From Cyanidioschyzon merolae (lineage: Eukaryota), in the NCBI GenBank assembly GCA_000091205.1, contig AP006501.2: a stretch of 64,000 nt of DNA; one strand, given 5' to 3'. Positions 7,212 through 62,820 of this stretch are shown piece after piece. Both the position numbers and the translations under genes were made by a program. How positions within the stretch are numbered: position 1 is the stretch's first letter; each line of letters begins with the position of its first letter. The notes under the pieces were generated by a model. That model worked only from the letters and a program-made list of their open reading frames with translations. It was not told the origin of the DNA and searched no databases.

Positions 7212-8784
7212 CGTGTCTCTAATCGATGAGCAGCGGTGATCGCAGTCTCGTATGTAGTCAGCGCAGTGGATTCTGGAACAACTGTTCGAGGACGCGCTTT
7301 TGTTTCGATTGCTTTTCTCGCAGGTGTTCAACCAAGCAATTGTGTACTTTAGGTTCGGGGGAAAGTCGCGAAACGTTTTGAGCTTTTTATGGCTTGCTTG
7401 CGCAAACCGCCGTCATTCTTAACTGAAGGCAACGCAATCCGATAAAGTGCATGAATCAGCTGTCTCGTAGTGCCTGTTCCTAGAACTGCGCTCCAAAACG
7501 AGAACGTACCAGACGCCACCTACAAGCCTTGCTCGTTTTCAATCCGTTCCACTCCACAGTTCCGTTCAGAAAAAGCAGAGAAAAAACCACACGATATGAA
7601 GATTCTGTACCGTCGATACCGACGGTAATGAAGAGGCACGGGTGGACGACGCAAAAGCACGTTGCTCCGTGAGACCGTCGTACGTTGAACGAGACGCGCA
7701 CACTCTCATACGCACACCCGCGATCGATTACATCATGAAAAGCGAGCGGTTACTACGGGACGGACGAGTGCTCGTCGCTCTCAATGAGACTTCATTCAGA
7801 GAAGCGTGCAGACCTGGACACGGGCGCCCTAACAGGGATCATCGATGTTCGCACACCAGGAACACGCGAGTATTCCGAAAGGATCAGCAGTAGCAGCAGC
7901 ATGGAAATCGTGTGGTCGCCTACTTTTCGCCAAACGGGCGGGATTGCCCAACAGCTCATTCGCGGTCGAGGCAGTCCCCAGGATGCAGAGCTGAAGTGGA
8001 TGCCCTGCACGCTTGCTCCGGGGTGCGCCTTAGCGACCATGCGGCACATGCGGACGATCTTGGGGCAGGGGCACAGCGAACCGCGCTGGGGCCGCCAACG
8101 GTTTCGGTTGTATAGGCCGAACTGGCGTGCAATCGCCTACGTGGTCAGTCAGTTGGACAAAGCATCGACAGACGTGTCGCATCGTTTGGTGGAGGACGAA
8201 GGCGCTCGACGTATTGCTGCGCGCAAAGCACGTACCCGTGTTCGTTGCGCGAGAGCGCACACCGAGTGCAGGAATCGATGCGGTACGTGCTCCCGTTGAT
8301 GAGTTCAAAACGACGTATACGCATCACAAGAATGTGTGCACGCTGAAACGGGTAGAGAAGATGAATGTGAAACGGAACCTGATGCACGACGTGGTGTGCG
8401 GGAAGCGGAGCATCGTCAGGTAGCGACGAGGGTGCAGGTGAGCGGCTGGCAACGGCGTGATTCCCCGAGCAGCCACGCGTGCAAGCACATTCTGCGCGGA
8501 GACTTGGGCGTCTCAACGAGCACCCGGAAACGTCTCGTGCTTCCGGAGCGTCCATCGGTTTTGCATGAAGCGAGCGCTCGAGGTAGTAATCGGTTCGACC
8601 TTCGCGGCGCCATGGTACTGGAACGCAGAAGGCTTGCGATGAAAAGAATCAGTGGCGGCGAGAGAGGGCTCTGGATTCCCGACTGGAGCTATGCACTGGT
8701 ACGATATGGATCAGCAATCGAGTGAGACTCGTGTACTCTCATATATGCGCTGTGATTTGGATTCCCTGGCAGTTGGAGAAAGAT
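7212..8784 (+). mobile_element. Copy A of a repeated non-autonomous element (Fanzor-tail family); internal-deletion derivative
   Basis: The ~1.5-kb core (7264-8784) is ~98% identical to 39461-41010 and, inverted, to 56635-58190. The left-end motif 'gagcgtgtctctaa' (~7212) matches the left ends of copies B and C. About 580 bp of the Fanzor-derived segment present in B and C is missing here. Confidence 0.7.
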
Positions 8785-9333
8785 CGTGCTGATCCATACT
8801 TCAGAGTTCATAAGTCTGCTGAATCGCATCGCTCAGCTTCGAGCAAATCCTCCTCGATTCGGAGTCCTTTCGGCTGGCGCAGCGTCGCAACTGCACGAAA
8901 CCTCTTCGGCCATCTGTCGTGTTGCGTTGCGCTGCGAGCGCTTCAACGGACGTGGACGAACGAACTCTAGGCCTACAGGTATACGCACCCTATAAGATAG
9001 AATAGGCGAGCACACTGCTAGTCTCTGAGAAAACGCTGCGGGCGTCAGGTTCTCAAAAACTTTTGCCAGGCGCGCAGTCTGTTTTTGCGCGATTTGCTAG
9101 AGGCAACCCACTTGGCGTTGGTATCTGCTACGTTCGACCTTAAACAGTTGGCGCGACAGCTCTCGAACAAGCACTGCAACGCGGAGGCCCTTCACCGAGC
9201 CAAGGTGCTTCCGAACCTGCTGGAGGCGCCAGGAACGGACTGGCGCTCACTGCAGCACTAGGGCGATAGGGAACGTAGCGCGCCTGGCCAAAAGCCCAAA
9301 CGACGGAGACGTTTTAGATCATTTCCAGAGTCT

Positions 9334-17499: not shown

Positions 17500-17950
17500 A
17501 AGTATGTTCAACTAAAGCAATAAAAATTCAAGTGGGGGTTATGGGCATGGTAGTTAGGGGTTTCGGAGAGCTCTCCATGCCACGTCCGATGAAAACAAAT
17601 CAAAAAAATTTTCTTCTTGCTGATCATCGGGCGAACGAAAGCAAGTGATGAAGAAGCAGAAGACGAGGAGATATGGGCGAGAAAAGGAGTTTGCCCGACG
17701 AGACAATGCCGAGGTTGTATTGATACAGAGGGCGTGAGTAAGAGGAATGCTTGCATTGTTGACTTCCGCCAGCGGCAATGTACGCGAGGAGCTTATGAAA
17801 CGAGAGTTCAATGCTGGTATCAGTATAAGATGAATTGTGTTGCTGGAGACGGAACCCGAGGCGCTGACGCGAGCCGCCTTTGTAAGGTAACCTCTCAGCG
17901 TCGAAGTGTGCCTGGATAAACTGTAGCGGATACCAGGCAGTCGGTCAAAA
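17500..17950 (+). pseudogene. Degenerate Fanzor (TnpB-like) 3'-terminal fragment
   Basis: Across frames it reads 'FARRDNAEVV...LLALLTSASGNVREELMKREFNAGISIRRIVLL...FVRQPLSVEV'. This is homologous to the RuvC-III / C-terminal region of the other copies ('EFVNRDVNAAI...VRQPLRLEVY'). The upstream ~120 bp aligns at nucleotide level with 38960-39080. Confidence 0.6.
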
Positions 17951-18696
17951 AAGGCTGGGAGGCGTCGAAAAGTGGGTGAATAGATATACCCCCATGGTCG
18001 TGACACATTGTTCGTTGTGCTCACCACGTATGTAGATGCTGGTGCGAGCACCGTATGCTATGGCAACAGGGTAATGCTTTCCTATGAGAACGGGCCCTGG
18101 GTCCTTTGGCTCCGATGCCGTCTCGTGCATGCCCGTATGCATCGCATCACGCTCGGCAGCGTGATCGACGAGCCCGTTTGGAGCATGTCACACGTGTGTC
18201 TCGGTGCGGTATAATTTCGGAACTCTCGAATCACCGGTAGAGTCTTTATTGTACTAGAGCTCGCTTTAGCGGCACGACAGACTCGAATGCGTGACGCGTT
18301 GGCGGCCGTCAGAGCGCCACTAAGGGCTGTGGTGGCTCGGCTATCTTGCCCCGGCACATGGACATATTATTCCGTTTCCCCATCATAATCACCAGAGCCG
18401 CATGTTCCATGTCCATCCATACTGCCTGCTCAGATTGCTGCTCAACCGACTACGCTTGTATGGCATACGCATTAGGCCATCGAAGCCAATAGGCGCTTGA
18501 GACTAGAACGCAACAGCTGCAGCCATGCATAGTTGCCTCCTCGTGCGGCTGGCGCCCGCTAATGTTTGCGTTTGCGCAGTCTCATACAAGCGCGGCCTTC
18601 GTCACGTCAACAAAATGAGTCTTATTCGGCACCAGGTGGCGTAGTCGAGCGGTCTCCATCTGAGCATGCGATCGCCACGCACACCTGCAACGACCG

Positions 18697-23325: not shown

Positions 23326-24912
23326 CTACACGGCCTGCTCGTTTATCTCACCAAGATGATCGATGCAACTGATTCGCAGCGTCGACGTTGGTTTCTGGAT
23401 GCGGCAACGTCGGCGTATGTCGTCCAGAGCGATCTGAAAATATTCCACCGGACGAGCGGAATCTAGAAACTCATCGTGATCGGCTACATCTCCGTCAACA
23501 TAGTACCCGATATGACCAATGCCATTTGGTGCAAATATGTGCACGAATCCATTGGCGTCTAGTGTTATGCGCGGTGAACGGCCCACTGCATGTAGTGGAT
23601 GACTCGGGCGTTCACTGGCGGAGGCGCCGTTAGTAACAGGTAGCATACGAGTGACCGAAGCGTGTGGTGCATTCGCAACCTGATAAGGAACACGCGCATC
23701 ATGCTCTAGTCGCTCGGGTGATGGTAGTGGTGATGCGGCTGGTTGCGCAGTGAACGAGGCCCAGTCCGGCTCTATCTGCTCTACAACAGCAAGTGCACCA
23801 ACAAAGTGCCGATGGAAATGCAAGCGGCAAGCAGCACTCCTATCCCAGTGCGGTTCGTGTGCCTCCCGCTCTGGATCTGGGTCTTGCACCGTGAAAAGAC
23901 GGTAGAAATAGTCAAAGCCGCGGGCCATGATACCACCACCGCGGCACGGATGCGGAAGCGACAGACAGTGACCCAGTTCATGCAGCATCGCGCCAATTGT
24001 TGTGGAGGCCAAGGCCCAGCGTTCACCGCGACCGGCGCTATCATCGAAGAAGTTAATTGAGTCTACGCGTCTCCGATCACTAAAGCGCTTTGGCACTTCT
24101 GAGAGCGTCTGTGGCCATGCGTACATACCACTGGAGCCAAAGAGCGCTAACGTGCCTCCACCAAGTGCTGTGTGTCCATACACACGGCCTGTGCTCGCAT
24201 CTTTTGACGTGAAAGACATGACAGCCACGTCGATACACTGCTGGCGGTTAGATATGTTCGAGAGCTCCTCAGCAATCATACCCCAGAGCGCGTCACCCGA
24301 AAGTGCATGCAGCTCGGCTCGTGTCCGCGACAGACGCCTTACATGAACAGGTACATCATAGGCGCAGTGAATCTCTTCGATATTCCCTGGCAACGGAGTC
24401 GCACACGCAGCGCTCATACGTTCAATGCAAAAGCTCAAATGACCGAGGCCTTGCTCATGAAGCAACTCTGCGGCAGCTGTTTGCATGAGTCGTAACGCTA
24501 ACGCGAAACGGCGCACGGCGCTCGCAAGCATACAGTCTTCGTCGGGCGGAGCTTGGAAACGCACCTCCACGGCGTCTCGCGGCACGACGTAGACTGCTCG
24601 GACTACATAGTCCCAGGGGACGTCCAGATAGTGAACGCGAAACTGCAGTTTCGCTGGCCCGCTCAGCGGACCCGCAGCGACAAGGTTTACCCCTGGTTGC
24701 AGCCAGACTAACGCTCGAAACCTACCATCGCAGTTGCGCACAGGCCAAGGCGTTCGTTGCTGTTCAGCAACCAAACTACCTGGTTGAGCATTTGCCAAGT
24801 AAACGACGACGCACGTGAGGTGCTCATTGAGCGGCACCTGACCGCATATCAGAAGCAACGGAAACGTTACAGCTTCGTCTGGTCGGAGGTTCTCAACCCG
24901 CCATCGCACCAT
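23326..24912 (-). CDS. Putative zinc metalloprotease (metzincin-like HExxHxxxxxH motif)
   Basis: 528-aa ORF with an ATG at 24912. 'AMLHELGHCLSLPHP' has the metzincin spacing HExxH-5-H, with Ser in place of the Gly. I cannot assign a closer family. Confidence 0.45.
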   Translation of the reverse strand: MVRWRVENLRPDEAVTFPLLLICGQVPLNEHLTCVVVYLANAQPGSLVAEQQRTPWPVRNCDGRFRALVWLQPGVNLVAAGPLSGPAKLQFRVHYLDVPWDYVVRAVYVVPRDAVEVRFQAPPDEDCMLASAVRRFALALRLMQTAAAELLHEQGLGHLSFCIERMSAACATPLPGNIEEIHCAYDVPVHVRRLSRTRAELHALSGDALWGMIAEELSNISNRQQCIDVAVMSFTSKDASTGRVYGHTALGGGTLALFGSSGMYAWPQTLSEVPKRFSDRRRVDSINFFDDSAGRGERWALASTTIGAMLHELGHCLSLPHPCRGGGIMARGFDYFYRLFTVQDPDPEREAHEPHWDRSAACRLHFHRHFVGALAVVEQIEPDWASFTAQPAASPLPSPERLEHDARVPYQVANAPHASVTRMLPVTNGASASERPSHPLHAVGRSPRITLDANGFVHIFAPNGIGHIGYYVDGDVADHDEFLDSARPVEYFQIALDDIRRRCRIQKPTSTLRISCIDHLGEINEQAV

Positions 24913-24971
24913 TCACGCCGTTCGAAAGTCGAACGACGCGAACGGTGTACAGTAGTGGCGGCAACCGCGCC

Positions 24972-27377
24972 CTAGACGAAACGTATACAACTGACGTTCA
25001 GACGCCTTCCAGCCTTTTTGGACCGGCCACCCACTACTGCTTCCAACTTTTTCGCATATAGTTCGACTTTGAGGGGTTGCCTAACAACATTCTCTCGTGT
25101 CAACTCCGGAGGTCTCTTCTCCAGCACCGCGCATTTCCTTAGATTGATGGCGGCATTAAAATCTCGATTCACGAATTCCATCCGTTTCTTGCCATCACTG
25201 GCTGTATTCACTAATGCGAGTAATCCTCGCACTTTTGCCCTCCTTTCCATTTGCTCCCCCGTCAGCGGCCCATACTTTTTTATATCCTCAGGGCACCTCT
25301 GGCACTTTTCCATCTCGACCCTCTGAAGTGTACACCCCAGTTCAGGGTGTATATAGGACGTCCGGAACTCATCTATAGGTATCGTAACGAAACGCCGTGC
25401 ACACTCCTTGTATATTCTTGTCGTTGGAGCAGGCGTAGTTCCTTTTTGGGTCTTCCAACACCCTGCCCCATACGCTACGAAGAGCCTCTGACCTTCATCC
25501 TCCTTCAAGGCGCTCAACTGATTGGAAAAAATTCGCGAACGCCCGCTGCCTCCCACCGTATACATTCATACGCACTCGAATCCACCGAGGCTTGGTATAC
25601 TCCTCCCACAGCGCATCCCAATGAGCAACACGAACTTCCATCAATTTCAGAAAAGCCTGAAAGTCCGCATTCCGGCTCGTCACCTCACTCATAGCTTCCA
25701 GGCGATCCTTCATTCCTTCGTTCCATGTCTCAATTTTCTTCCTTGCATTCATTATACCGGATTCCCGATAATATCTTGCTCTCGAGAACCCCAAAGTTCG
25801 CATGTCTTTCTGACGTAAGCTACCGTCAATGACATCTTCCGCACGCTTGGGTGCTGCGATGGTAATGATATTCGTATTCCCAGGGTCCGCGCCAACGACA
25901 AAGTCGTTATCCTCTACCTGCTGCGTCGCTGGATCCTCCTTCTCCTTTTCTCCATGCTTCGTCACGGGCTCAGCCGAAGGCAGGACTGGACGATCTGTCT
26001 TGAACCGCCCATAGTGTACACACATGGCTACTCTATCGGATTCCATCATCCTCTTGAATACCTTTTGTTTACTCATTTTGAGACGTTTGAAATCTAAGAT
26101 ATCCTTCCAGTACGTCTCCCGGTTTTCGCCGGTGAAGTCCTCCCTGCTAGCATCAAACTCGGGATTGATATCCCTCATGATGCCGTTATGGACGCCGAAG
26201 TCGATACTCACAAAATGTGACTTGATGTTGCACAACGGAACGCCGTTGAAGCGCTTTCCCGTTAGGAAAGCCTTCCGTCTCTCCCACTCTTCATTTTTTT
26301 CCCCACTCAGCTTCATCTCTGCCTTGCGTTCGAGCTCTCGGTCCAGAAACACAAAATAGCGCAGGATGAGGCCATGATATCTTTCCTTACCGTTTTTCAA
26401 CTCTGATATCTTTTCTGCTAGATTCGCCAGCCCCAAGTCTGCGCGGCGCTCTTGAATAGCCGCACGGATTACAGAAGCTTCATTCGTGCTCTCGTTTGAC
26501 GCCTTCTTGTCGACGAATTCGATCTCATCTTCACGCTTGCGATCTTTCGTGATGCCGTCGATAATCGCCCATTTTCCATTGCGAGACAGACCCGGGTAGA
26601 GTGCAGCCACGCGCGTATCATGAAACGTTCGAGGTTCATGTTCAAATGGTTCTTCAGATTCGTGAGGTACTTCATAGCCCCATAGTCGTAAATATCCCGG
26701 TCACCCTTGTATCGAGTACCCTCGAAGCAGAATTTCGCGAAGTTTTCGTGGAGGACGTGCACCCGCTCATTTTCCCTCCATGTTTCCTCTGTACCAAGCA
26801 TCAGCTGACGAACAAAGGTCTTATCGAAAAACTCGTCCGGAATCTCGACCATTTCCACGTGCGTCACGTCGCGATACATCTCCCTCACCAAATGCATCAG
26901 TCCTGATGACGCCTTGACAATACTCTTGGAGTACGAATCGACACGGTTCCTAATGGCCTCTCGCAACTTTTGTTTGTGAGGATCCTTGTTATGTTTAAGA
27001 AGACAGGTTTTCACCACCATCTCGTCGTACTGTCTTCTTTCTCGCAGCCTTGGACGTGCGGCCTCCTGCCTTTGCTTCTTCTGCCCTTCCTGTTCTTCTT
27101 CGCCCCGCCATGTTTTTCGTGTTTCTCCACCAACCGGCGACACAGGGCCCCAGGATCCTCCGCTTCCACTTCCATAACTTTCCATTTTTAATTTTTTATA
27201 ACGCTCTCTGAACGCTTCTGCTCCAAACAGCGAAAAATCACTTGAATACACTTGCTTGAGTGTTGAAACACAATTGAACTGAATAATATACGTTGCTACG
27301 ACTTTAATGAAAATAAAATTTGCCGGGTAGAACAACACGCTACAGATTAGGATTCCATTCCTCTTCAACGGCGACAT
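24972..27377 (-). CDS. Fanzor-like (eukaryotic TnpB/OMEGA family) RNA-guided nuclease gene, near-intact. It is split over three overlapping ORF segments (26469..27377, 25495..26610, 24972..25565)
   Basis: The N-terminal segment has a K/R/E-rich NLS-like region. The middle segment carries RuvC-I ('[17 protein letters not shown]'). The third segment carries RuvC-II ('[16 protein letters not shown]'), a zinc finger ('[14 protein letters not shown]') and RuvC-III ('[15 protein letters not shown]'). The order RuvC-I, RuvC-II, ZnF, RuvC-III and the 'RDxNAAxN' motif are characteristic of TnpB/Fanzor. The frame changes between segments are consistent with either tiny introns or inactivating frameshifts. 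Confidence 0.8.
25518..25563 (-). other. Candidate 46-nt GT-AG intron joining Fanzor ORF segments 2 and 3
   Basis: On the minus strand the sequence 'gtatacggtgggaggcagcgggcgttcgcgaattttttccaatcag' begins with GT and ends with AG. Removing it joins '...RVRMN' in frame to '[19 protein letters not shown]...'. A length of 46 is not a multiple of 3, which explains the frame switch. Confidence 0.35.
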
Positions 27378-27794
27378 GCGCGTCGTGTCTCGTGACCACC
27401 TGATCCGGAGGTGCGCGTACCGACCGCGCTATACAAACGAAGAGCAAAAATGAATCATTAAATAGCGACGAGGTAACAATGTCTTTCTTCCTCTACGAGA
27501 AACGTAAAAAGGATGAAAGTTTTTCGTATTGTGGAAAAGTTTACCTTACAGGCGGAGGGTCCTGCGAGCTGGACGATTCTGCTAGGCTGGTGCTCGGTGT
27601 GCCTCTAAAGTGGCGGATGCTGTAGCGAGACCTGCGCAGCTCGTCCGCAACGCAGTTTTTTGGGACTAGGGGCAACAAAGCCGCGTCTGGGCGTCGCCCT
27701 GTTGCGGTGGTCTCCTAGTATATCGTTTCGCGCTGCCGCAGAAAGTACGTCCGTCAGCGCAGCTTGCAGACTCTCAGAACTATTATGTACTCCG

Positions 27795-28010
27795 AGACGA
27801 TGCCAGGTGCACCACGCCTCGAGCCGACGCCCTCAGTAGTATGGCAAAGCCGTTCTGTCTCCGTGCAGCATCCGCACCAGCGGTAGGCGCTACATCTGGT
27901 GCTGACGCCAGGCACTTGCTGCACGATAGAATGTACGAGACAACCTGTATATCCTCGAGGAAGTATAAGAAATGAAGCTTGAAGGTAAGTGCATCATAGT
28001 GGACGCTTTC
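27795..28010 (+). repeat. ~200-bp interspersed repeat, copy 1 (family also at 34738-34860 and, inverted, at 46005-46235)
   Basis: Nucleotide alignment by eye: 'cctcgagccgacgccctcagtagtatggcaaagccgttctgtctccgtgcagc...' matches the reverse complement of 46005-46235 and the forward strand of 34745-34860. Confidence 0.7.
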
Positions 28011-28335
28011 CCGAAAGCAAATATCCATCCCGCAATCTGGGATCCATGGTCAATATAAACGTCTTGTCATCGAAATATGCCTCCCGACTGGGGGACGCGT
28101 CAGCGTCGCAGCGCATCGCTGCTGGCGACCCGACGGCTGGACACGTTTCCTCTGCGTATCTGTGCCGCACGGCGCTGCAGTGCCTGGAGACTCCAAGAAG
28201 TGGGGTGTGCGTTTTGTTTGACGGATCGGTAGTGGTTGGGTGTGCTACAGTTCCACGAAGCAAACCGTTCTGCTTAGTTGTGTTCTCTCTAGAGTTCTTT
28301 CCGCGGAGGCCTGAGACTTAGCGAATTTATTTGTT

Positions 28336-28773
28336 ATGAGCAAGAAAGGCGGAGACGTCCCCGAGTACGTGTACGAGCCATACCAAGGTGACGGGTACGC
28401 ACCTCCTCCTCCGGCAGCGAACTCTAGTAGCGTGTATAGGTACCAGACAGGTACGAATGCTGTGCCGCCGCCGCCGCCTCCGACGCAGAACGGCGTCGCT
28501 TATGCTTACAGTCCTGCGGGGGCGCCGCCGCCACCGCCACCCCCAAACTTTTCTTATGCCTACAGCGAGGCCCTGCCGGACGGCACCTCCCGACACTATT
28601 ATTACGCCCAGCGGACCTACTCGAACGCGCATGGGCGGTATCAGAACACGAACTTTGACCAGAACGACCAGCTTGCGCGGGGGTGTCTCTACGCCTGCTG
28701 CGAAGGTATGGCGGCTGGTCTGTGTGCGGCGCTGACCTTCGAGTGTTGCCTCGGTTTGTGCGGTTTCTGGTAA
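28336..28773 (+). CDS. Pro-rich protein with a C-terminal cysteine-rich transmembrane (CYSTM) module
   Basis: ATG at 28336. PPPPP/Y-rich N-terminal region. The C-terminal 'GCLYACCEGMAAGLCAALTFECCLGLCGFW' is typical of the CYSTM tail-anchor. Confidence 0.6.
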   Translation: MSKKGGDVPEYVYEPYQGDGYAPPPPAANSSSVYRYQTGTNAVPPPPPPTQNGVAYAYSPAGAPPPPPPPNFSYAYSEALPDGTSRHYYYAQRTYSNAHGRYQNTNFDQNDQLARGCLYACCEGMAAGLCAALTFECCLGLCGFW

Positions 28774-30307
28774 GCAATTGGTCAGGGGTGTGCCATGCGT
28801 CTCGTGGCTCGATCAATAGACAGCTCACACCATCATGGACGATGTGGCCGAACTTGGAGTATCATATGGTTTGCGCCCCGTAGCGGGCAGCTCTGTGCTG
28901 CGTAGACAGGTCTCTCCGAACCGTTGCATATGTCATCCAGGATTTTGCATGTTATATATGAAGAACCCCTCCTGCAGATCGAGGAAAATCACCGTCTTCG
29001 GAACGCGAGTAGTAACCGGTCTGTTCCAGCTGTATGCGGATTGTCAGCCCGAGGTTTACTGGCAATAAATCTGGTGCTTTTCGGAAAATAGATTGAGCAT
29101 CTCGAAGGGTACATCGTAAATGCTGTATTTTCTGCATAAAGTTACATCAAAAACATGCCAAGTATCAGAGGCATAGCTCACGCCCCGGACCGTCTCAGTC
29201 TTAGCGGGATCTGCACCGGACCCTATCAGAAAGTTACTACGCACACTGGTGTATGCGTTGTCCGAAATTCGCCAACTCTACTTCCATAGTGCCGTACGGT
29301 GTAGAGGCGCGAAGCGTCCAATGAACCTGTGTGCGACAAGTCCAGCTCGGCCAATTTTCTGTGGCGCTGGGTACGTATCCACGCTTGTCGTACGTCGAAG
29401 GGCGGCTTTGCGATGCTTTCATTGATGTCGGCCCGAGGGATCGAGCACTCTGCCCCGTGCGACGTCATACTGAAGAGGGATCGTGTGGCTGGACGCATAG
29501 CGTTTCCGTCTTTGACATCATCACTCGTGTGACAGTTTTCAATAAACTCGAGACAGCTGATCTTCAGCATGCCTGGTTACTAGGACGCACCAAGCAACAC
29601 GTATGCCGTACCATTAAGAGACTGCCTTACAAAGCAGCAAGAAGCAGAAGCAAAACGCAGCCATACAGAAGGGTGGCGCTAGCGCTGGCAGTCCACAACA
29701 AACTTGGATGCTTCCAGCGAACTCAAACGGGTTACGCCTCCATTCTTCTCCGCGCACACAAGCAGCTAGCAGGGACAGTACGAAAGCTCCCGTTCCACGC
29801 GCGAAATAGACTACAAAAGGTTCTGCTTTATGATTATGATACTTGTTCTTGCCTTTATATGGAGCCGGCCGCTGCCGAATAAAAACTATCTACCGACAAG
29901 AGAACAGACTCTGCCAAGCTAATTCCAACTTCGGATGCACGTACTTGCCAACTGCGTTCAAGGGTTTTTCTGAAGACTGCACGTTGCGACTGCGGAGCCC
30001 GGCACCGCATCAGTACGCCAACTAGCGTTTTCATGGTGCAGAATCGATGAATATAGCTAGGCCAATGTCAAACTTCAATGCAACTGGTCCACGTACCGAC
30101 TTTGGGCGAAGAATCTAAAGCCTCGGCCTCATCCAATGTCATCAACGCCAGCATTTACGTATTTTTGCTGCGACTGGTCCCATTTTCTCCTTTTTTCTGG
30201 ATTACGATACGCTGGTCCCTCCTTTTGCTCAAGTTCCATTGTCAGTAGCCGAAAGACCTAGATGACGGCATTATATTTCCTTTTTCACCATTTTTGGAAG
30301 TTGCCCA

Positions 30308-31422
30308 TACAATTCATGCACAGGCGGCGGTTGCGACATGCGCGTCGTTTGCGATAAGGGAATCGTCTTGGCATACGGTCGCGCTGTACCCGCTGCAGGG
30401 GTGACACTTGAGACTGGTCAGGCGTTCCCTCAGATGCACACGAGCTCCCCGTCATCCTCCTCTTCCTCCAAGGGCCGCCCCACGGTACCTGAACGCTCCC
30501 CTCACCACCCGGTACATGCCCATGACGGGTGCAGAGTGCCCCCATGGGTGCCCGACTCCGTTGCGCGCTGTGCGCTACGTTTGCGTGCTTGTTCTGGGCG
30601 ATCCCCTAGGAGCGGACGTCGTACGCTCGACGTGCAAGCGCACCATGTTCCATTCGACAGAGCCTGTATGGAATGCAACGTTGTCCGTGGTGTAACGAGT
30701 GGCCGACGGAAAACCCAGGCTGGAGATTTGTTCGAGAAATTTGGATTTATGTTCACTCATTTCGTGCTAAGCTGCGACGCGTCCTCTACAGGAAGCGATC
30801 GCTACGATCGCTCAAGTTCGAGTCCATAACCGTATTCCGTGCAAAGAGAACAGACAGGAGCCTCTAAGGCATATTCCGTGGGACTTGTGATGCTTCATTC
30901 GAATGGAGCTTCCCTGATGTCCACAATAGGGGACGATTTGTCTTCGGAACGGAACCGATCATCGGACCTGAATCGGGCGGTGGTCTTTCAGCATGAGCTT
31001 GTGGGCACGTCGCCAAGGGACGACGCGGGCTACTACGTGCTCTCGTCGATCCATCGGCGCAAGTCGCTGTGCCCAACGAGCATCCTTGCAACAAAATAAG
31101 CGAAACCCCGGGAAGTCGGTGATTTGAGCACACTCCTGGCTGTCCAATTTGACAAGTAGAGGCTTGAACGTAAGCGTTGGATAATGGCATGTATTGATTT
31201 ACGAAAACTTGCTCTAAAGCGTCCTGAAAATGGCGATTTCGGTAACGTAACAAATTCCGGCGGCAGAGCGTCGTGTTTGCAAGTCCCAGAGGAAAACAAC
31301 GCAACCTTAAGCTACGGTGTAATCCTTACGCCCTCACTGCTTGAATTCGAGTGTGCAGGCTGTACACCTGGGAAGGGTTCGCAAAAAATCGCTAGCCAGG
31401 TACAGGGCGGGCGTTCAGTCTT
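30308..31422 (+). repeat. Inverted repeat arm 1 (~1.1 kb), partner at 33616-34727
   Basis: Identical ORF translations occur on opposite strands (30338..30829(+) = 34207..34746(-); 30864..31304(-) = 33753..34172(+)). Both boundaries were read by nucleotide comparison. The arms are near-identical apart from a few indels and SNPs. Confidence 0.9.
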
Positions 31423-32227
31423 GTACTTTAATCTGATACAGGCGCAGCATCGCAGCCGGGCGTGCTGTCGCCCTGATATGAACGCTCCTATACAGCCATC
31501 TGCTCGCGCTAGTTGCAGATTCCTCATCGTCGGGGAAGGTGCTCTTCTTCCAGGGAGCGGTCGATGCCTGCTGCAAATTCACTACGCCACACAGTTCCTC
31601 AAACGAAGACCAGCCATCCCTTACGCCCTCAATAATCGGGTTACTGACCCTACTCGCCAATGTGACCCTGAGCGGGCGCCATTCTGAGCGAGACCCGAGC
31701 GCTGCGTCTTCCGATCATGCGTGGGACAAACTCTCCCCACAGTTGTCCGTCGAGTGCCTGCCTGGGGCGCCACGATAACAATCGCTCGTGATGGCCCCAC
31801 CTCGGGATCGATGCTGCGCGTCATGGCACGCGTTTTACGTAGTGGCTGCCCCGGCGGCATCCCTGGGCTCACAGGATGACGCATGCACCCGCATGCACAA
31901 AGTCAGGCTCTGCACTAGAGGCTGAGATATCCGTATCCTCGCGTGGCCGGTTCAAAATACACGTATGTGCGCAGCGGTTACATGCGAGTGCCGCTTCGTG
32001 CATGAAGCAGCACCATCGCAAGCCTCCGGTGAGCCGCATTTCAGGACGTTTAAGAATCCGCTCTCGATGATTCCGGCAACCGGCTGGTGTACGAATCCTG
32101 GAGTTATTGCTGGAGAGGTTGCGGATGCTGTGGGCAAAGATGCCATGAACAGCGAAACTGCTGCCAAATTCGCGTACCGCGCATCGATGCTCTAGCGCTT
32201 CCTTAAACGACCACTGTTTTCTGCCGA

Positions 32228-33370
32228 TCAAGCCCGGCAGGAAGCGCGAATCTGTTCCGCGCTTTTGCGGCCGTAGTGGCGGATCCACGGATGCATCGCA
32301 GAGAGAACCACCAAAAGCGCCTCTTCGGTTCGGATGGTGCGACTCCCCTGATGCGGGCAAGCATTTACGTAGGCGTCGAACAACTTTGCGACGTCCGGAC
32401 TGCCATAGCTTGCTTCGAGTCCGTGGATTCCACCAAATGCAACGAGAAGCTTGCGGAAACCCCCTGGAGGAATGAATGACGCCCTCCGAGCACTCGCCCC
32501 ATCGATTTCAGTTTCAGCCGCCGTGCTGTCCGTAGCTCGTTCGGCAGAGCTACCCCAGAGGGTAGCGAAGAGGTCGGTGCCCCGCTCGCTGGTACCTATT
32601 TTCACATCAGCGCCGCTCGTGGACAGAGCCTGTACTAAGTTAGCAGCCAGTCGCACTTTGTAGCCCCAGTAAAGCCCAAGCCTTTCGCGGGGCTCATCGC
32701 GAGCGACCATCACGGCCCGAGTCCAAGTCCAGCAGCCTTGCATATGTAAAGACGGATGCGAATCCCGTTTACGCTTACGGTTCGAGCCTTGTTCCGCAAC
32801 ATAGTGTCCACTCCTCTCTAGTTTCTCGAATCGCACTGTAACGCGCTGTCCGACGGGCAACGGCATGTCAGTGTCGACAGCTACAGGAGCGTCCCAGCCG
32901 ACGTGAACGTATCGACTTCGGTCTGACGTTGCGCCAGTGTCTGGAGCGGGTACCACGACCCCCTCGCGGTACGGAGTTCCCTCGTGCCGCCGCGGATGGT
33001 GCGGTGTATCCAGCGGGTTTAACAGTCCAACGTACTGTAGTTCAGGCGTATGCGGAAAAAGCGCCTGTCGCAGGTACTGAGGGCACTCGGCATACTGCAA
33101 AAGTCTCGCTAGATGGGTATCAAAAGCCGTCGACGACGGCGATGAAACGGTGCCCGCGATAGTTGCACGGACACGCTCAGCGAAGATAATGACCTCATCT
33201 ACCTCAAAGATTGCAAGTGCTCTCGCGATCTGCCCCGCAAGGTACGTCTGTAACGCCGGGGTCTGCGCGTTAGCCAGAACGGATCCAGGCAGCGCTACTG
33301 CAAGTGTCCACGAGCGCCCTTTCTGCTCGCTCTTGGTGCAGTTGGAAGCAAGGGCAGTTTCCTGGTGCAT
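32228..33370 (-). CDS. SPOUT-domain putative RNA methyltransferase, SPOUT1/C9orf114 (DUF171) family
   Basis: The track ORF begins with GTG at 33385; the first ATG is at 33370. 'TLAVALPGSVLANAQTPALQTYLAGQIARALAIFEVDEVIIF' closely matches the conserved N-terminus of C9orf114/SPOUT1. The C-terminal 'LLVAFGGIHGLE...' trefoil-knot region is present. Confidence 0.75.
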   Translation of the reverse strand: MHQETALASNCTKSEQKGRSWTLAVALPGSVLANAQTPALQTYLAGQIARALAIFEVDEVIIFAERVRATIAGTVSSPSSTAFDTHLARLLQYAECPQYLRQALFPHTPELQYVGLLNPLDTPHHPRRHEGTPYREGVVVPAPDTGATSDRSRYVHVGWDAPVAVDTDMPLPVGQRVTVRFEKLERSGHYVAEQGSNRKRKRDSHPSLHMQGCWTWTRAVMVARDEPRERLGLYWGYKVRLAANLVQALSTSGADVKIGTSERGTDLFATLWGSSAERATDSTAAETEIDGASARRASFIPPGGFRKLLVAFGGIHGLEASYGSPDVAKLFDAYVNACPHQGSRTIRTEEALLVVLSAMHPWIRHYGRKSAEQIRASCRA

Positions 33371-33615
33371 GCGTAGAAGGTGCACAGCGCCCTTTGTTTC
33401 GGTTCAGTTATGGGCCAATTAGAAACCGTCTGAGCGCCCTCTGCTCCAGTCGATCTGAGCAACGCTGGGTCAGACAAAAATGTTTCTAAGCGTTGCAAAT
33501 GGCGTCGATGATCCAGTGCGCTGCGCGTCAGCGCGTGCTGAAGTGCTCGTTATTTGAGGACGAAAGCCATTCTGTGACTAGAGACATCTAAAGCCGTGGA
33601 ATAATAGAATAAAAG

Positions 33616-34727
33616 ACTGAACGCCCGCCCTGTACCTGGCTAGCGATTTTTTGCGAACCCTTCCCAGGTGTACAGCCTGCACACTCGAATTCAAGCAGTG
33701 AGGGCGTAAGGATTACACCGTAGCTTAAGGTTGCGTTGTTTTCCTCTGGGACTTGCAAACACGACGCTCTGCCGCCGGAATTTGTTACGTTACCGAAATC
33801 GCCATTTTTCAGGACGCTTTAGAGCAAGTTTTCGTAAATCAATACATGCCATTATCCAACGCTTACGTTCAAGCCTCTACTTGTCAAATTGGACAGCCAG
33901 GAGTGTGCTCAAATCACCGACTTCCCGGGGTTTCGCTTATTTTGTTGCAAGGATGCTCGTTGGGCACAGCGACTTGCGCCGATGGATCGACGAGAACACG
34001 TAGTAGCCCGCGTCGTCCCTTGGCGACGTGCCCACAAGCTCATGCTGAAAGACCACCGCCCGATTCAGGTCCGATGATCGGTTCCGTTCCGAAGACAAAT
34101 CGTCCCCTATTGTGGACATCAGGGAAGCTCCATTCGAATGAAGCATCACAAGTCCCACGGAATATGCCTTAGAGGCTCCTGTCTGTTCTCTTTGCACGGA
34201 ATACGGTTATGGACTCGAACTTGAGCGATCGTAGCGATCGCTTCCTGTAGAGGACGCGTCGCAGCTTAGCACGAAATGAGTGAACATAAATCCAAATTTC
34301 TCGAACAAATCTCCAGCCTGGGTTTTCCGTCGGCCACTCGTTACACCACGGACAACGTTGCATTCCATACAGGCTCTGTCGAATGGAACATGGTGCGCTT
34401 GCACGTCGAGCGTACGACGTCCGCTCCTAGGGGATCGCCCAGAACAAGCTCGCAAACGTAGCGCACAGCGCGCAACGGAGTCGGGCACCCATGGGGGCAC
34501 TCTGCACCCGTCATGGGCATGTACCGGGTGGTGAGGGGAGCGTTCAGGTACCGTGGGGCGGCCCTTGGAGGAAGAGGAGGATGACGAGGAGCTCGTGTGC
34601 ATCTGAGGGAACGCCTGACCAGTCTCAAGTGTCACCCCTGCAGCGGGTACAGCGCGACCGTATGCCAAGACGATTCCCTTATCGCAAACGACGCGCATGT
34701 CGCAACCGCCGCCTGTGCATGAATTGT
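33616..34727 (-). repeat. Inverted repeat arm 2
   Basis: Reverse complement of 30308-31422 (see arm 1). Confidence 0.9.
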
Positions 34728-34737
34728 GTGGACAGCA

Positions 34738-38501: not shown

Positions 38502-38826
38502 TGAATCTAGGGTTTAAACTAGCCGCTTTCGTGTTCCTAGGAAAGAGTTTGTAGAAGAGTCCAACCAGCTTGCTCCGATCGTTGCAAGCAACCCGTTGGA
38601 AGCGATCTAGCTGGCGGGTCCAGGCGATTTGGCTTAGCCTGCAGCCTGCCTTTAACAACGATTAAAGGATTTGAGCACAATAAAACCTCAAGTAAAGCAC
38701 GCAAGCCTTTTCACGAAGCCGCTCACGTGGAATAGGAGTTCTGTAACAGTCTTTGCGACGATATGCACTTGCTCGAAGCGGCCGTCGCCGATCGATGGCA
38801 GGCGAGGCCGTCAACCACCCAAACCC

Positions 38827-41010
38827 GAGCGTCTCTAACATAGTCTGCTACCTCTATTATGTTCCACCGCAGGTGCGAGTCCTTTACGGCCTCTTCGCGG
38901 TTTACCGCAGATTCATTCGAAGCGCGTTCATCTTGAAGAAATACAGTATTCAAGGGGAAGGTATGCACGTAAAAGCCGAGGATCCTGGAGGACCGTCATC
39001 CCTGGCTGCCCGAAGAAAACGCAAAAAATCCTCTCATCGCCGATCATCGAGCGAAGACAAGCAAGTTACGAGGAAAAAAACAGAATAGGGGACACAGACG
39101 ATAAAAGGTGTTTGCTAGACGTGACAATGACGAGACTGTTGTGGCGCAGGGGGCGCGAGTACTTGGAATTCTTGCAATGTTGAGCTCCACCAGCGTCAAT
39201 GCACGCAAGGAGTTCGTGAATCGAGACGTGAACGCCGCCATCTATACCAAACGATGTGCGGTGCTGAAGAGGATACCCGAGGCGCTGGCGCGAGCCCGTC
39301 TTGTGAGGCAGCCTCTCAGGCTCGAGGTATACATGCAGAATCTGGAACTGATAGCAGGCGGCCGGTCAGACGAGAGAGTGAGGCGTCTGCGAGTGGGTGT
39401 CTATGTACCTATCATGGTCGTGAACCGCTGCTCGTTGTACCGACTATAAACTTAGAGCAGTGGATTCTGGAACAACTTTTCGAGGGCGCGCTTTTGTTTC
39501 GATTGCTTTTCTCGCAGGTGTTCAACCAAGCAATTGTGTACTTTAGGTTCGGGGGAAAGTCGCGAAACGTTTTGAGCTTTTTATGGCTTGCGTGCGCAAA
39601 CCGCCGTCATTCTGAACTGAAGGCAACGCAATCCGATAAAGTGCATGAATCAGCTGTCTCGTAGTGCCTGTTCCTAGAACTGCGCTCCAAAACGAGAACG
39701 TACCAGACGCCACCTACAAGCCTTGCTCGTTTTCAATCCGTTCCACTCCACAGTTCCGTTCAGAAAAAGCAGAGAAAAAACCACACGATATGAAGATTCT
39801 GTACCGTCGATACCGACGGTAATGAAGAGGCACGGGTGGACGACGCAAAAGCACGTTGCTCCGTGAGACCGTCGTACGTTGAACGAGACGCGCACACTCT
39901 CATACGCACACCCGCGATCGATTACATCATGAAAAGCGAGCGGTTACTACGGGACGGACGAGTGCTCGTCGCTCTCAATGAGACTTCATTCAGAGAAGCG
40001 TGCAGACCTGGACACGGGCGCCCTAACAGGGATCATCGATGTTCGCACACCAGGAACACGCGAGTATTCCGAAAAGATCAGCAGTAGCAGCAGCATGGAA
40101 ATCGTGTGGTCGCCTACTTTTCGCCAAACGGGCGGGATTGCCCAACAGCTCATTCGCGGTCGAGGCAGTCCCCAGGATGCAGAGCTGAAGTGGATGCCCT
40201 GCACGCTTGCTCCGGGGTGCGCCTTAGCGACCATGCGGCACATGCGGACGATATTGGGGCAGGGGCACAGCGAACCGCGCTGGGGCCGCCAACGGTTTCG
40301 GTTGTATAGGCCGAACTGGCGTGCAATCGCCTACGTGGTCAGTCAGTTGGACAAAGCATCGACAGACGTGTCGCATCGTTTGGTGGAGGACGAAGGCGCT
40401 CGACGTATTGCTGCGCGCAAAGCACGTACCCGTGTTCGTTGCGCGAGAGCGCACACCGAGTGCAGGAATCGATGCGGTACGTGCTCCCGTTGATGAGTTC
40501 AAAACGACGTATACGCATCACAAGCATGTGTGCACGCCGAAACGGGTAGAGAAGACGAATGTGAAACGGAACCTGATGCACGACGTGGTGTGCGGGAAGC
40601 GGGGCATCGTCAGGTAGCGACGAGGGTGCAGGTGAGCGGCTGGCAACGGCGTGATTCCCCGAGCAGCCACGCGTGCAAGCACATTCTGCGCGGAGACTTG
40701 GGCGTCTCAACGAGCACCCGGAAGCGTCTCGTGCTTCCGGAGCGTCCATCGGTTTTGCATGAAGCGAGCGCTCGAGGTAGTAATCGGTTCGACCTTCGCG
40801 GCGCCATGGTACTGGAACGCAGAAGGCTTGCGATGAAAAGAATCAGTGGCGGCGAGAGAGGGCTCTGGATTCCCGACTGGAGCTATGCACTGGTACGATA
40901 TGGATCAGCAATCGAGTGAGACTCGTGTACTCTCATATATACGCTGTGATTTGGATTCCCTGGCAGTTGGAGAAAGATCGTGCTGATATACTATCCGATT
41001 TTACTGCGGA
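38827..41010 (+). mobile_element. Copy B of the ~2.2-kb repeated non-autonomous element: a Fanzor 3' fragment (38835-39460) plus the 1.5-kb core (39461-41010)
   Basis: Near-identical to 56635-58824 inverted; the core is identical to 7264-8784. The ends were read from where the three copies diverge: left 'ccgagcgtctctaaca', right '...gatcgtgctgatatactatccgattttactgcggatat'. No target-site duplication is seen. Confidence 0.8.
39108..39449 (+). pseudogene. Fanzor/TnpB C-terminal fragment (RuvC-III) inside copy B
   Basis: 'ARVLGILAMLSSTSVNARKEFVNRDVNAAIYTKRCAVLKR...VRQPLRLEVYMQNLELIAGGRS' aligns with the intact copy's '[41 protein letters not shown]...[22 protein letters not shown]'. Confidence 0.75.
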
Positions 41011-41354
41011 TATGAAGCGAGATGCAACACAGTGTTTTGATATAAATCCGCGCATTCAAACCTATAGACTTTCAGATGAACTTTGACACTCGCAACACAA
41101 ATCTCGCTCGTTGGAGCTGCTCGACTCGCGGCGTCTAGCCTTCTCGAAACTGGAATGCGACTGCCGGACAGTCACAGTTGCAAAACGTTCGCTGCGAAAT
41201 CGGTCATTGGGACAGTATTTCCAACCATCCACGGCTATTTCATGTGCAAAAGCTCTCCAAGCCGTAGAATTTGCAGTGTTTTCTTTTTTATAGGCATGCA
41301 CATGAGCTTTCTTATTTTGACGCTCCAAAGAACTAGTGTCTGATTCGGCGATCG

Positions 41355-58824: not shown

Positions 58825-58829
58825 CGGGA

Positions 58830-60456: not shown

Positions 60457-62820
60457 ATGCGAAACGGAGCGAGTTGTAAAAGAAAAAAACGTGAAGAGGA
60501 TTTGCAGGGTGGTCTCATGCCTAGGCGAACGCAACTGAAGCGTCGTACCGTGCGAAAGACGGGCGCAAGCTCTCGACCAAGTCTCCCTACAGAGGCCGAA
60601 CAACGGCGTTTCAACTGCGGAGACTATGTGCTTCTGAGGGCTCCGAAAAAGGAATCACAAGATACTGCAGCGGGGGGTAGTCTGTCGCGGACAATAGCCG
60701 CCACAACTCCGAGGGGCCGCAGACGGAGCCAAGGACCTGAGGATGTCGCAGAGATCGATCTGACGACGTGTTGGATCGCTCAGATTCTCAAGATATCGAG
60801 AGAGAGTACAGGGAACGACGAGCGTATCCTGGTAAAATGGTTTTATCGTATGAAAGACCTCTATCACTGGCATACCACGGTAGGCCACGAGGAGGTCTTT
60901 GAGAGCGAGCATCTCGACGAAAATGAGTCCGATTGCGTCGTCGGTCGGTGCCACATCGTTTGCGAAATGGAATGGCGAATGCTTCTAGAAAAGCGCACCC
61001 GAAGCAGTTCTGTGTCAAAGCAAGAGGAGCTTCGGGTCTTCTTATGCCGGGAACGTTATGACTTTATCACGGGGAGCTTTGCACCGTCCACAATGACGAT
61101 CCAGTGGATTCAGGAGCACCAACCAGACTCTAATTTCGTTGCCTCGAGCATTCAGAGAGACAGTTTTAGTCATCGATCATTGCTCGCTCTGCTTCGTTAC
61201 ATGGTTGAAAACAGCTTTCCCGTCGATAATGATGGCGACTGCGCCGAGCAGGTCGATCTTCATGATACCGGCGATGAAGACGCCTGGGATCCTGCAGAAG
61301 AGCGAGCCCTTCAGCTGCGTCTCCGCTCGAGGCAACGTGCAGCGGCCGGCAGATCGCGCGGCAACAACTGTAGCCAGGAGTCAGATATGACGCCGCGTCC
61401 AAGAGCTGGAGGTCAGCTATTACTCTGGCCGTCCGATGTGGGTGCCCACGAGCACCGCCAATCGAGGATTTCAAAGAACGCCGTTGAGTTCGCGGAGGTA
61501 TCTGAGCCAACGGGGTCCGTCCCCCGTCTACTCCAAGTTTCCCGCTTCGGGGCCCCCCGCGTCCAGTTAGTGTGCCGTGACGTCGAGACTGAGCGTGTCT
61601 TGAAGTTCCTAACCGACTGTTTGCGCGGCTCTTCAGAGCGTTGTCTTTATATTTCCGGAGTACCTGGCACCGGCAAGACGGCTGTAGTCCGTTGTGCTGT
61701 ACAACAACTCGAGCAGCGACGTCAGCAGGGTCAGGTACCGCACTTTCAGTACATCGAGATCAACGGCATGACTATCCCTGATCCAACAAGAGCATATAAC
61801 ATTCTCTTACAACGACTGGGGCACCGCAGCACAGGTGCCGCCGGTGGACGACGGCCACCGGCGCCTGCAGAGGCGGCACGTCTGCTCGATCAGCGTTTCC
61901 GTCAGCGCAGAGGCGTCCATAACAGAAAGCATCATTCATCTATCCTAGTGCTTTTAGATGAAATGGATGCACTCGTTCTGAACCATTCCGCAGCGGCGCA
62001 GAGGGTGCTGTATGACTTCCTTGACTGGGCCAGCCGGCCTGCATCAGAACTAGTCATCATTGGTATTGCGAACACCCTCGATCTACCGGAGCGTCTGTTA
62101 CCTCGGCTTGCGTCCAGGCTCGGAATGAACCGTCAGGTGTTCAAACCCTATTCTGTGACCCAGTTGCAGCAGATTCTTCGCCACAAATTGGGGCCCCAGC
62201 TTTTGCAACATTTCGATGAAGACGCATTAGAGCTCTGCACGCGCAGAGTTGCGGCAGTATCTGGAGATATTCGACGAGCACTGGCCATCTGTTTGCATGC
62301 GTATGCTCGCTCGCATAGCGAGGATTGTTCTTTGAGGGCTTCAGAAAACGAGCATGATCGCCTGGTATCTGCTGTGGATATCGATGAGGCAATTAGAGAG
62401 CTGACTCCGAGCTCTGTCCAGAGTGCTGTGAAACAGCTAAGCCAGATCGAGCAGCAGGTCCTCATGAGTGCAGCACTTTGTGGTAGACAGGCAGTGCAGC
62501 AGGGCTCCGAAACTTTCCGTTTCCAACAGATATGGCATAGATTTCGGCAGTTTCACGCCTCCACAGAAGGTCATCCTGCATACCCGTTGCCCTTGCAGGA
62601 CCAGATCGAAGAGGTCTGGCATATCCTCATGGGTCTTTGTGCCTGCAACCTGCTTAGTTGTTCAGTGCCGTCTTCTTCTTGTGCTTACGCTGGATTTGCG
62701 AGTACTCGACTCCCAAATCTGCACGAAAGCCAATTCGTGTTGAACCCGCTTTTTGACGATATTGCATTTGCATTTCGCGAGAACCGTTCATTTGCGCAAG
62801 CTGCTGGGGAACTTGTATGA
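60457..62820 (+). CDS. ORC1: Origin recognition complex subunit 1 (ORC1; BAH domain plus AAA+ ATPase)
   Basis: ATG at 60457. The N-terminal BAH-like region reads '...CWIAQILKI...ILVKWFYRMKDL...CHIVCEMEW'. Walker A 'ISGVPGTGKTAVV', Walker B 'ILVLLDEMDALV', a sensor/arginine finger and a C-terminal winged-helix region follow. The architecture is ORC1 rather than CDC6 because of the BAH domain. Confidence 0.8.
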   Translation: MRNGASCKRKKREEDLQGGLMPRRTQLKRRTVRKTGASSRPSLPTEAEQRRFNCGDYVLLRAPKKESQDTAAGGSLSRTIAATTPRGRRRSQGPEDVAEIDLTTCWIAQILKISRESTGNDERILVKWFYRMKDLYHWHTTVGHEEVFESEHLDENESDCVVGRCHIVCEMEWRMLLEKRTRSSSVSKQEELRVFLCRERYDFITGSFAPSTMTIQWIQEHQPDSNFVASSIQRDSFSHRSLLALLRYMVENSFPVDNDGDCAEQVDLHDTGDEDAWDPAEERALQLRLRSRQRAAAGRSRGNNCSQESDMTPRPRAGGQLLLWPSDVGAHEHRQSRISKNAVEFAEVSEPTGSVPRLLQVSRFGAPRVQLVCRDVETERVLKFLTDCLRGSSERCLYISGVPGTGKTAVVRCAVQQLEQRRQQGQVPHFQYIEINGMTIPDPTRAYNILLQRLGHRSTGAAGGRRPPAPAEAARLLDQRFRQRRGVHNRKHHSSILVLLDEMDALVLNHSAAAQRVLYDFLDWASRPASELVIIGIANTLDLPERLLPRLASRLGMNRQVFKPYSVTQLQQILRHKLGPQLLQHFDEDALELCTRRVAAVSGDIRRALAICLHAYARSHSEDCSLRASENEHDRLVSAVDIDEAIRELTPSSVQSAVKQLSQIEQQVLMSAALCGRQAVQQGSETFRFQQIWHRFRQFHASTEGHPAYPLPLQDQIEEVWHILMGLCACNLLSCSVPSSSCAYAGFASTRLPNLHESQFVLNPLFDDIAFAFRENRSFAQAAGELV

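Follow-up and report, generated by a model that had tools for sequence, protein, structure and literature searches.

How does a gene come by its start codon and its promoter when a transposable element ends within a few nucleotides of its coding sequence? The question is raised by a 64,000-nt stretch of Cyanidioschyzon merolae DNA (contig AP006501.2, assembly GCA_000091205.1; hereafter the window), in which a zinc metalloprotease gene lies directly beside a gene of the Fanzor type. A first-pass annotation of the window had put the Fanzor stop codon at 24972 and the ATG of a divergently placed, 528-aa metalloprotease open reading frame (ORF) at 24912, and had proposed that the promoter and 5' untranslated region (UTR) of the metalloprotease sit inside the Fanzor unit, through either a recent insertion or the co-option of element sequence. 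Both coordinates were confirmed: the final Fanzor reading frame ends in TAG at 24974-24972 on the minus strand, the metalloprotease starts with ATG at 24912-24910, and the gap between them (24913-24971) is 59 nt. The relative orientation had to be corrected: the two genes are arranged in tandem on the minus strand, Fanzor lying upstream of the metalloprotease. Overall, the evidence points to an account that we consider likely, namely that an old insertion of the Fanzor1 element CMe-1A sits at the 5' end of the metalloprotease gene, that the tail of the element supplies its ATG, and that transcription, if the gene is expressed, begins inside the element.

The identity and the start of the metalloprotease were examined together. 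Its product is identical over 528 residues to the C. merolae 10D protein BAM82735.1 / XP_005538771.1, and the window is therefore C. merolae nuclear DNA. The ORF matches Pfam family PF12044 with an E-value of 5e-68 (230 bits against a gathering cut-off of 27), which agrees with the zinc-metalloprotease call made earlier, and the HELGH zinc site (HExxH) is invariant in the orthologue alignment. A start at an internal Met far downstream, which had been considered in the first-pass annotation, does not fit the sequence: the start call is sound because an in-frame TGA (24915-24913) lies immediately 5' of the ATG and the next in-frame Met is only at about residue 128, and position 3 of the PF12044 profile is aligned to residue 5.

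The upstream gene is Fanzor-like, judging from family-wide comparison, and the copy in the window is a pseudogene. It had been taken for one intact unit, but the reading frame is broken into three pieces (27185-26613, 26613-25504 and 25544-24972) in three different frames, and two frameshifts of 1 nt each are therefore present, one near 26612 and the other in a T6 run near 25525, which leave no intact nuclease ORF. The RuvC residues D433, E605 and D674 are kept. In an alignment of 12 family sequences, D433 and P434 of RuvC-I (GADPGNTN in the window copy), E605 of RuvC-II (DEFRTS) and D674 of RuvC-III (NRDxNAA) are all invariant, and the D-P-G motif of RuvC-I is a criterion for the Fanzor/TnpB superfamily (Yoon et al. 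2023, PMC10711439). The zinc-finger ligands, CxxC..CxxC in an intact finger, are degenerate (HH..C, with the later Cys lost) in the window copy and in all close CMe-1A copies. All close CMe-1A proteins read RGLLALV where distant relatives read RGLLWC, from which it follows that one presumed zinc-finger Cys was lost across the C. merolae clade; some of these copies keep long intact ORFs. Neither a Pfam search with the separate ORF pieces and the repaired protein nor a PDB search with the single Fanzor sequence gave a match. Only the family profile succeeded, matching the structurally solved Fanzor1 of Spizellomyces, SpuFz1 (8gkh), with an E-value of 1.2e-8 over 350 positions and GtFz1 (9cer) with an E-value of 0.03; together with the invariant RuvC residues, this bears out the earlier naming of the gene. 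Dozens of sequences related to the repaired protein share 54-85% identity with it, and a few others 30-40%.

By sequence comparison, the element that carries this pseudogene is a member of the published Fanzor1 family CMe-1A. Bao and Jurka (2013, PMC3627910) described CMe-1A in C. merolae as a family of ~150 copies of ~3 kb that lack terminal inverted repeats and match the consensus at ~80% identity; their first 635 bp, at the 5' end, also occur as a separate repeat, TE-N2_CMe. The window element agrees with this account in its organism, its length of 3.17 kb, its Fanzor1 ORF, its lack of terminal inverted repeats, its identity to other copies and a 5' module of ~635 bp that is found separately; it differs in being frameshifted, and the published account is silent on the ends of the element, on right-end hairpins and tail, and on the relation to host genes. 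A metagenome scan gave 221 relatives, and among the matches listed, the DNA identity of the window copy to CMe-1A copies is mostly 77-85%, with a few segments at 73-76%. No terminal inverted or direct repeats above chance were detected within 24850-28150, and an Rfam scan of 24500-28500 gave no match. At five loci (L024, L038, L077, L025 and L032), the TE-N2-like 5' module is variously placed, being inverted relative to the Fanzor ORF in some, ~2.4 kb downstream in others, and present as two head-to-head copies in one.

Where exactly the element ends decides what belongs to the metalloprotease. Comparison with ~40 other copies places the ends near 28080 and 24907, and because of this the whole 59-nt spacer is, on the evidence of these alignments, the right end of the element. 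Fifteen independent copies define the left end near 28080, with the consensus ..GATTTTTT on one side of the boundary and TTTCGATGACAAAACG on the other; a YGAT motif and a T-run are conserved at the flank and start of the element there. At the right end, homology to the other copies stops between 24915 and 24905, at or a few bases from the ATG, and 13 copies align as far as 24905-24907. All copies show the same order at the right end: the stop codon, a GGCG..CGCC hairpin (24971-24957 in the window), a linker ACTACTGTACAC, a strong terminal hairpin and a tail, TT(G)NTGGTG. The terminal hairpin, found in 35 of 36 copies, occurs at the same position in two versions of unrelated sequence, CGTCGTTCGA-CTT-TCGAACGGCG or AACGTTTTTC-TTTT-GAAAGGCGTT; in the window, it spans 24941-24913 with 12-13 bp and ends 1 nt before the ATG. 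Its predicted folding free energy is -17 kcal/mol, that of the spacer is -26 kcal/mol, and the 208-nt 3' region of the element folds with z = -3.7. RNAalifold run on a MAFFT alignment of the 36 right ends gave no consensus and missed the hairpins, MAFFT having mis-registered the two hairpin types. A predicted long-range stem, CAGTAGTGG/CCACTACTG, is not claimed here, as its mismatches in 16 copies, assessed by eye, are mostly uncompensated.

The tail after the terminal hairpin holds the ATG itself. In the window it reads TGAATGGTG, and its counterparts in other copies read TTGATGGTG, TTGTTGGTG, TTTGGTG or GTGGTG; the first of these, found in copies L029 and L076, has the same ATG as the window. 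By our own count, GGTG occurs no more than 9 nt from the hairpin in 12 of 20 type-A copies.

We then compared the locus with those of related cyanidiophytes, namely L003/L004, L007 (Cyanidiococcus) and the outgroup L098. Synteny is the same as in C. merolae, with a shared gene order of PCNA, an RNA methyltransferase, a small proline-rich gene, the metalloprotease, ATP sulfurylase and a RING protein, and protein identity is 67% for two lineages (one of them Cyanidiococcus yangmingshanensis) and 47% for the outgroup. No Fanzor homology was found by tblastn at the syntenic loci of these three relatives. The metalloprotease and its divergent neighbour are 373, 688 and 1265 bp apart in the relatives, compared with 255 bp plus the 3.17-kb element in C. 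merolae. The empty-site comparison suggested at the outset has thus been made, with three syntenic loci that lack the element and have intergenic regions of 0.37-1.3 kb. At the protein level, the orthologues have six residues before the conserved Trp (MFEQRG-W, MIEHNG-W, MLDRPT-F), whereas C. merolae has three (MVR-W), and DNA homology to the orthologues starts exactly at the TGG at 24903. The simplest reading of these alignments is that the element went in either at the very 5' end of the gene or a few codons downstream of it, and that the tail of the element gives a new in-frame ATG. We accordingly think it probable that ATG-GTG(-CGA) comes from the conserved terminal tail of the element and replaced the ancestral six-residue N-terminus.

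As for the promoter, the 3.17 kb 5' of the metalloprotease ATG contains no non-element DNA, and a transcript of the gene, if there is one, must therefore begin, and have its 5' UTR, within the Fanzor unit. On that condition, the proposal that the promoter region sits inside the Fanzor unit stands, as homology to the ~40 copies reaches 24915-24905. That the element bears the promoter of the metalloprotease, should the gene be expressed, is a geometric argument that we rate as having a good chance of being correct. Short environmental contigs (2.3-2.65 kb) whose 5' ends lie 62-377 nt upstream and stop at repeated k-mers were considered as transcripts; their ends are taken to be assembly breaks and not start sites, because two of them begin exactly at the conserved k-mer TAGGGCGCGG.

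The sequence evidence further indicates that the insertion is real, fixed and old. As would be looked for in an exapted element, CMe-1A is fixed in the species and missing from the orthologous site of the relatives. All 10 environmental contigs that cover the whole element share both frameshifts and show no indel at either site, and the junction sequence is identical in all 14 contigs that carry it. Of the recent insertion proposed in the first-pass annotation, the insertion itself is thus upheld by the three syntenic relatives without Fanzor; its recency is not, because this copy has diverged no less than other family members (77-85% identity), the two frameshifts are in all spanning contigs and the junction is identical. 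In contigs L088-L097, variable sites are about 8 times denser in the element than in the unique flanks plus coding sequence (51 in 3174 bp vs 6 in 2933 bp), an excess that could be due to gene conversion with paralogous copies or to assembly mixing.

Several points weigh against the account given above. The left flank holds no convincing remnant of the ancestral ATG: inspection of 28081-28120 for such a start and the codons after it brought up an in-frame ATG 12 codons upstream, which was set aside for want of convincing similarity to the orthologues. The GGTG conserved behind the hairpin may instead be a motif favoured as an insertion target, in which case the ATG would be native and the insertion 2-5 nt upstream of it. 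Scanning would be impeded by a GC-rich hairpin of 12-13 bp ending 1 nt from the AUG, should this hairpin be part of the 5' UTR. The element promoter is unproven, and the metalloprotease could be weakly expressed or silent. Lastly, when the diverged contig L002 was compared with the coding sequence, 5 of 7 differences were non-synonymous by our own comparison with the protein alignment.

The second of these points leads to the strongest competing explanation, to which we assign clearly less weight than to an ATG derived from the element. Here, the element would end at the hairpin (~24914-24917) just upstream of a native ATG, TGGTG would be the preferred target motif, and the start codon and MVR would be the gene's own, the element having displaced the promoter and given no coding sequence. 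BLAST homology with many copies does stop at 24915-24917, the tail after the hairpin differs between copies in length and sequence, and the N-termini vary between species (MFEQRG, MIEHNG, MLDRPT). The frequency of GGTG close to the hairpin, on the other hand, fits a conserved terminus such as that of IS200/IS605 right ends, and L029 and L076 carry the same ATG in their tails, while 13 copies extend their alignment past the proposed end. In addition, a six-residue leader is kept in all three relatives, including the outgroup, with homology resuming exactly at TGG. An empty-site allele reading ...ATGGTGCGATGG would mean that the ATG predates the element.

A further explanation, which appears unlikely to us, is that the insertion silenced the metalloprotease, and that what remains is a dead gene that has not yet decayed, with no promoter co-option. 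It gains from the 3.17 kb that now separate the gene from its former 255-bp bidirectional promoter region, from the stable hairpin adjoining the AUG and from the non-synonymous differences in L002; moreover, given two disruptions in 2.2 kb of Fanzor, a neutral ORF of 1.6 kb would stay undisrupted with a probability of ~0.24 by our own Poisson estimate. Against silencing, the 528-aa ORF is uninterrupted in 14 of 14 environmental contigs carrying the junction, and every column that is invariant across 7 orthologues is kept in the C. merolae protein. Across the 10 full-length contigs, variable sites number 1 in the 1587 bp of coding sequence and 51 in the 3174 bp of the element, a contrast that is partly due to excess variation in the repeat, since diversity is low in the non-coding flanks too. 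The same arrangement is also tolerated by essential genes, among them MCM5, in that case 95 nt from a right end. We would like to note that recent purifying selection on the metalloprotease is not demonstrated, because within-species differences in the coding sequence are few, and in one diverged contig mostly non-synonymous; within-species dN/dS accordingly rests on too few differences to inform. That the arrangement is ancestral and the element was lost in the relatives is very improbable even though the comparison is limited to four lineages, since three of these, including the outgroup L098, lack the element, have no tblastn remnant and share a longer N-terminus, and loss would need both precision and regeneration of that N-terminus.

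Returning to the preferred account of an old insertion that supplied the ATG, the history of the locus may be pictured as follows. A non-autonomous copy of Fanzor1 CMe-1A would have inserted at the extreme 5' end of the metalloprotease gene, either in a short bidirectional promoter region or in the first few codons, in the same orientation as the gene, so that the structured right end would now run directly into the coding sequence. The Fanzor gene would then have decayed via two fixed frameshifts while the metalloprotease ORF stayed intact. If the metalloprotease is still expressed, transcription would have to start inside the element, most likely driven by the 3' (omegaRNA) region reading outward and, less likely, by read-through from the Fanzor promoter. 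The features on which this history draws are collected in Table 1.

Table 1. Features at the CMe-1A/metalloprotease locus (positions are those of the window).
Feature	Position	Strand	Remarks
Zinc metalloprotease gene	23326..24912	minus	528 aa, PF12044, HELGH motif
Terminal tail of the element, TGAATGGTG	24907..24915	minus	TGA (24915-24913), ATG (24912-24910), codon 2 GTG
59-nt spacer, non-coding right end of CMe-1A	24913..24971	minus	conserved in ~36 independent copies
Fanzor1 pseudogene, family CMe-1A	24972..27185	minus	~736 aa after repair; two frameshifts
Whole CMe-1A element	24907..28080	minus	~3.17 kb, each end +/- few nt, no terminal inverted repeats
5' module of the element (~650 bp)	27430..28080	minus	corresponds to TE-N2_CMe; contiguous, inverted or detached in other copies
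Residual native intergenic region, ~255 bp	28081..28335		between left end of the element and divergent neighbour
Divergent neighbour, 145-aa proline-rich protein	28336..28773	plus	conserved beside the metalloprotease in relatives

Beyond the divergent neighbour, the RNA methyltransferase gene (32228..33385) is flanked by 1.1-kb inverted repeats (30302-31425 and 33610-34734) that are 99.4% identical. In all three related species the gene has the opposite orientation, a difference pointing to an inversion between the flanking repeats.

To place the locus among other insertions, we considered 41 independent CMe-1A insertions (loci L011-L087, on C. merolae-like metagenome contigs). A co-oriented ORF of at least 200 aa has its first ATG within 250 nt of the right-end hairpin in 20 of the 41, while the 3' end of a convergent gene faces the right end in 12 and no neighbour is in range in 5. 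The corresponding background at random non-ORF positions is ~5% (binomial p ~1e-13 for 20/41), a contrast that is inflated both by the transposon DNA included in the background and by the first-ATG calls. First-ATG distances can indeed overstate proximity: in the BRF1 ORF, the Zn ribbon begins only at residue 232. The orientation bias alone (24 vs 12) is weak, with p = 0.065. Left ends are usually farther from genes, in a small sample of 10 copies with enough flank. Pfam matches, all to host-gene types, were obtained for 7 of 10 scanned downstream ORFs (MCM5, a sigma factor, BRF1, a macro-domain protein, phosphoglucomutase, a DEAD_2 helicase and a TACC-like protein). As essential genes can evidently have a CMe-1A right end within tens of nucleotides of their start, outward promoter activity, or at least neutrality, of that end is plausible. 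A broader generalization, that CMe-1A elements are placed non-randomly, their right ends as a rule adjoining the 5' ends of co-oriented host genes, essential ones included, that omegaRNA-type outward transcription doubles as or was co-opted into host promoters, and that in the present case the element supplies the ATG while the would-be guide is made of the first codons, is possible but in our view doubtful.

The window also contains C-terminal fragments of a second Fanzor-like family with ~48% amino acid identity to CMe-1A, at 17729-17974 (+), 39153-39395 (+), 44508-44759 (-), 58258-58500 (-) and 59867-60193 (+). The last is co-oriented with, and ~260 nt upstream of, an ORC1/CDC6-like gene (60457..62820, BAH+AAA). 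A young repeat family, with ~99% identical copies of up to 2.2 kb, occurs at 38824-41013, 56640-58828 (inverted) and 7260-8800, and again at 44969-45875, which equals 58928-59835 (inverted). It holds a 171-aa ORF without a Pfam match, along with fragments resembling the Fanzor C-terminus.

In characterised Fanzor and TnpB systems, the omegaRNA scaffold is encoded by the structured right end, from which transcription proceeds outward into the flank, and in bacterial IS200/IS605 TnpB elements, the omegaRNA is transcribed outward across the right end. By analogy with SpuFz1 and other Fanzor omegaRNA loci (PDB 8gkh), the scaffold would lie at the right end of CMe-1A, and the guide would be the first codons of the metalloprotease. 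In its ends, CMe-1A is closer to IS200/IS605 than to SpuFz1, with no terminal inverted repeats, no evident target-site duplication and, beyond a strong subterminal hairpin, a short terminal motif that is conserved. It differs from the bacterial elements in its eukaryotic nuclear context, and we know of no TnpA-like transposase for it. SpuFz1 loci, by comparison, carry 30-nt inverted repeats (Saito et al., Nature 2023, PMC10432273), which CMe-1A lacks. A second difference from SpuFz1 is the zinc-finger Cys lost in the whole CMe-1A clade. Transposon-derived promoters are known both as the outward promoters of bacterial insertion sequence (IS) elements and as long terminal repeat and other transposable-element promoters in eukaryotes. 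The present locus resembles them in that the upstream region of a host gene, and probably its start codon, would come from a fixed and decayed transposon; for Fanzor elements, a host promoter or 5' end of this kind is, to our knowledge, undocumented.

The locus is, in itself, an ordinary fixed transposon at the 5' end of a gene, and both the element family and the gene were already known; the placement of right ends before genes is the more interesting lead. We are aware of no report on outward promoter activity of Fanzor right ends or on omegaRNA transcription in eukaryotes. Nevertheless, the locus is a clean test case, as C. merolae is genetically tractable, targeted homologous recombination is possible, and any expression of the metalloprotease must come from inside the Fanzor element, there being no non-element sequence upstream. 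Together with the half of sampled copies that lie before host genes, it offers a route to test the outward promoter activity of Fanzor/omegaRNA right ends in eukaryotes, and the same observations bear on how omegaRNAs are transcribed in eukaryotes.

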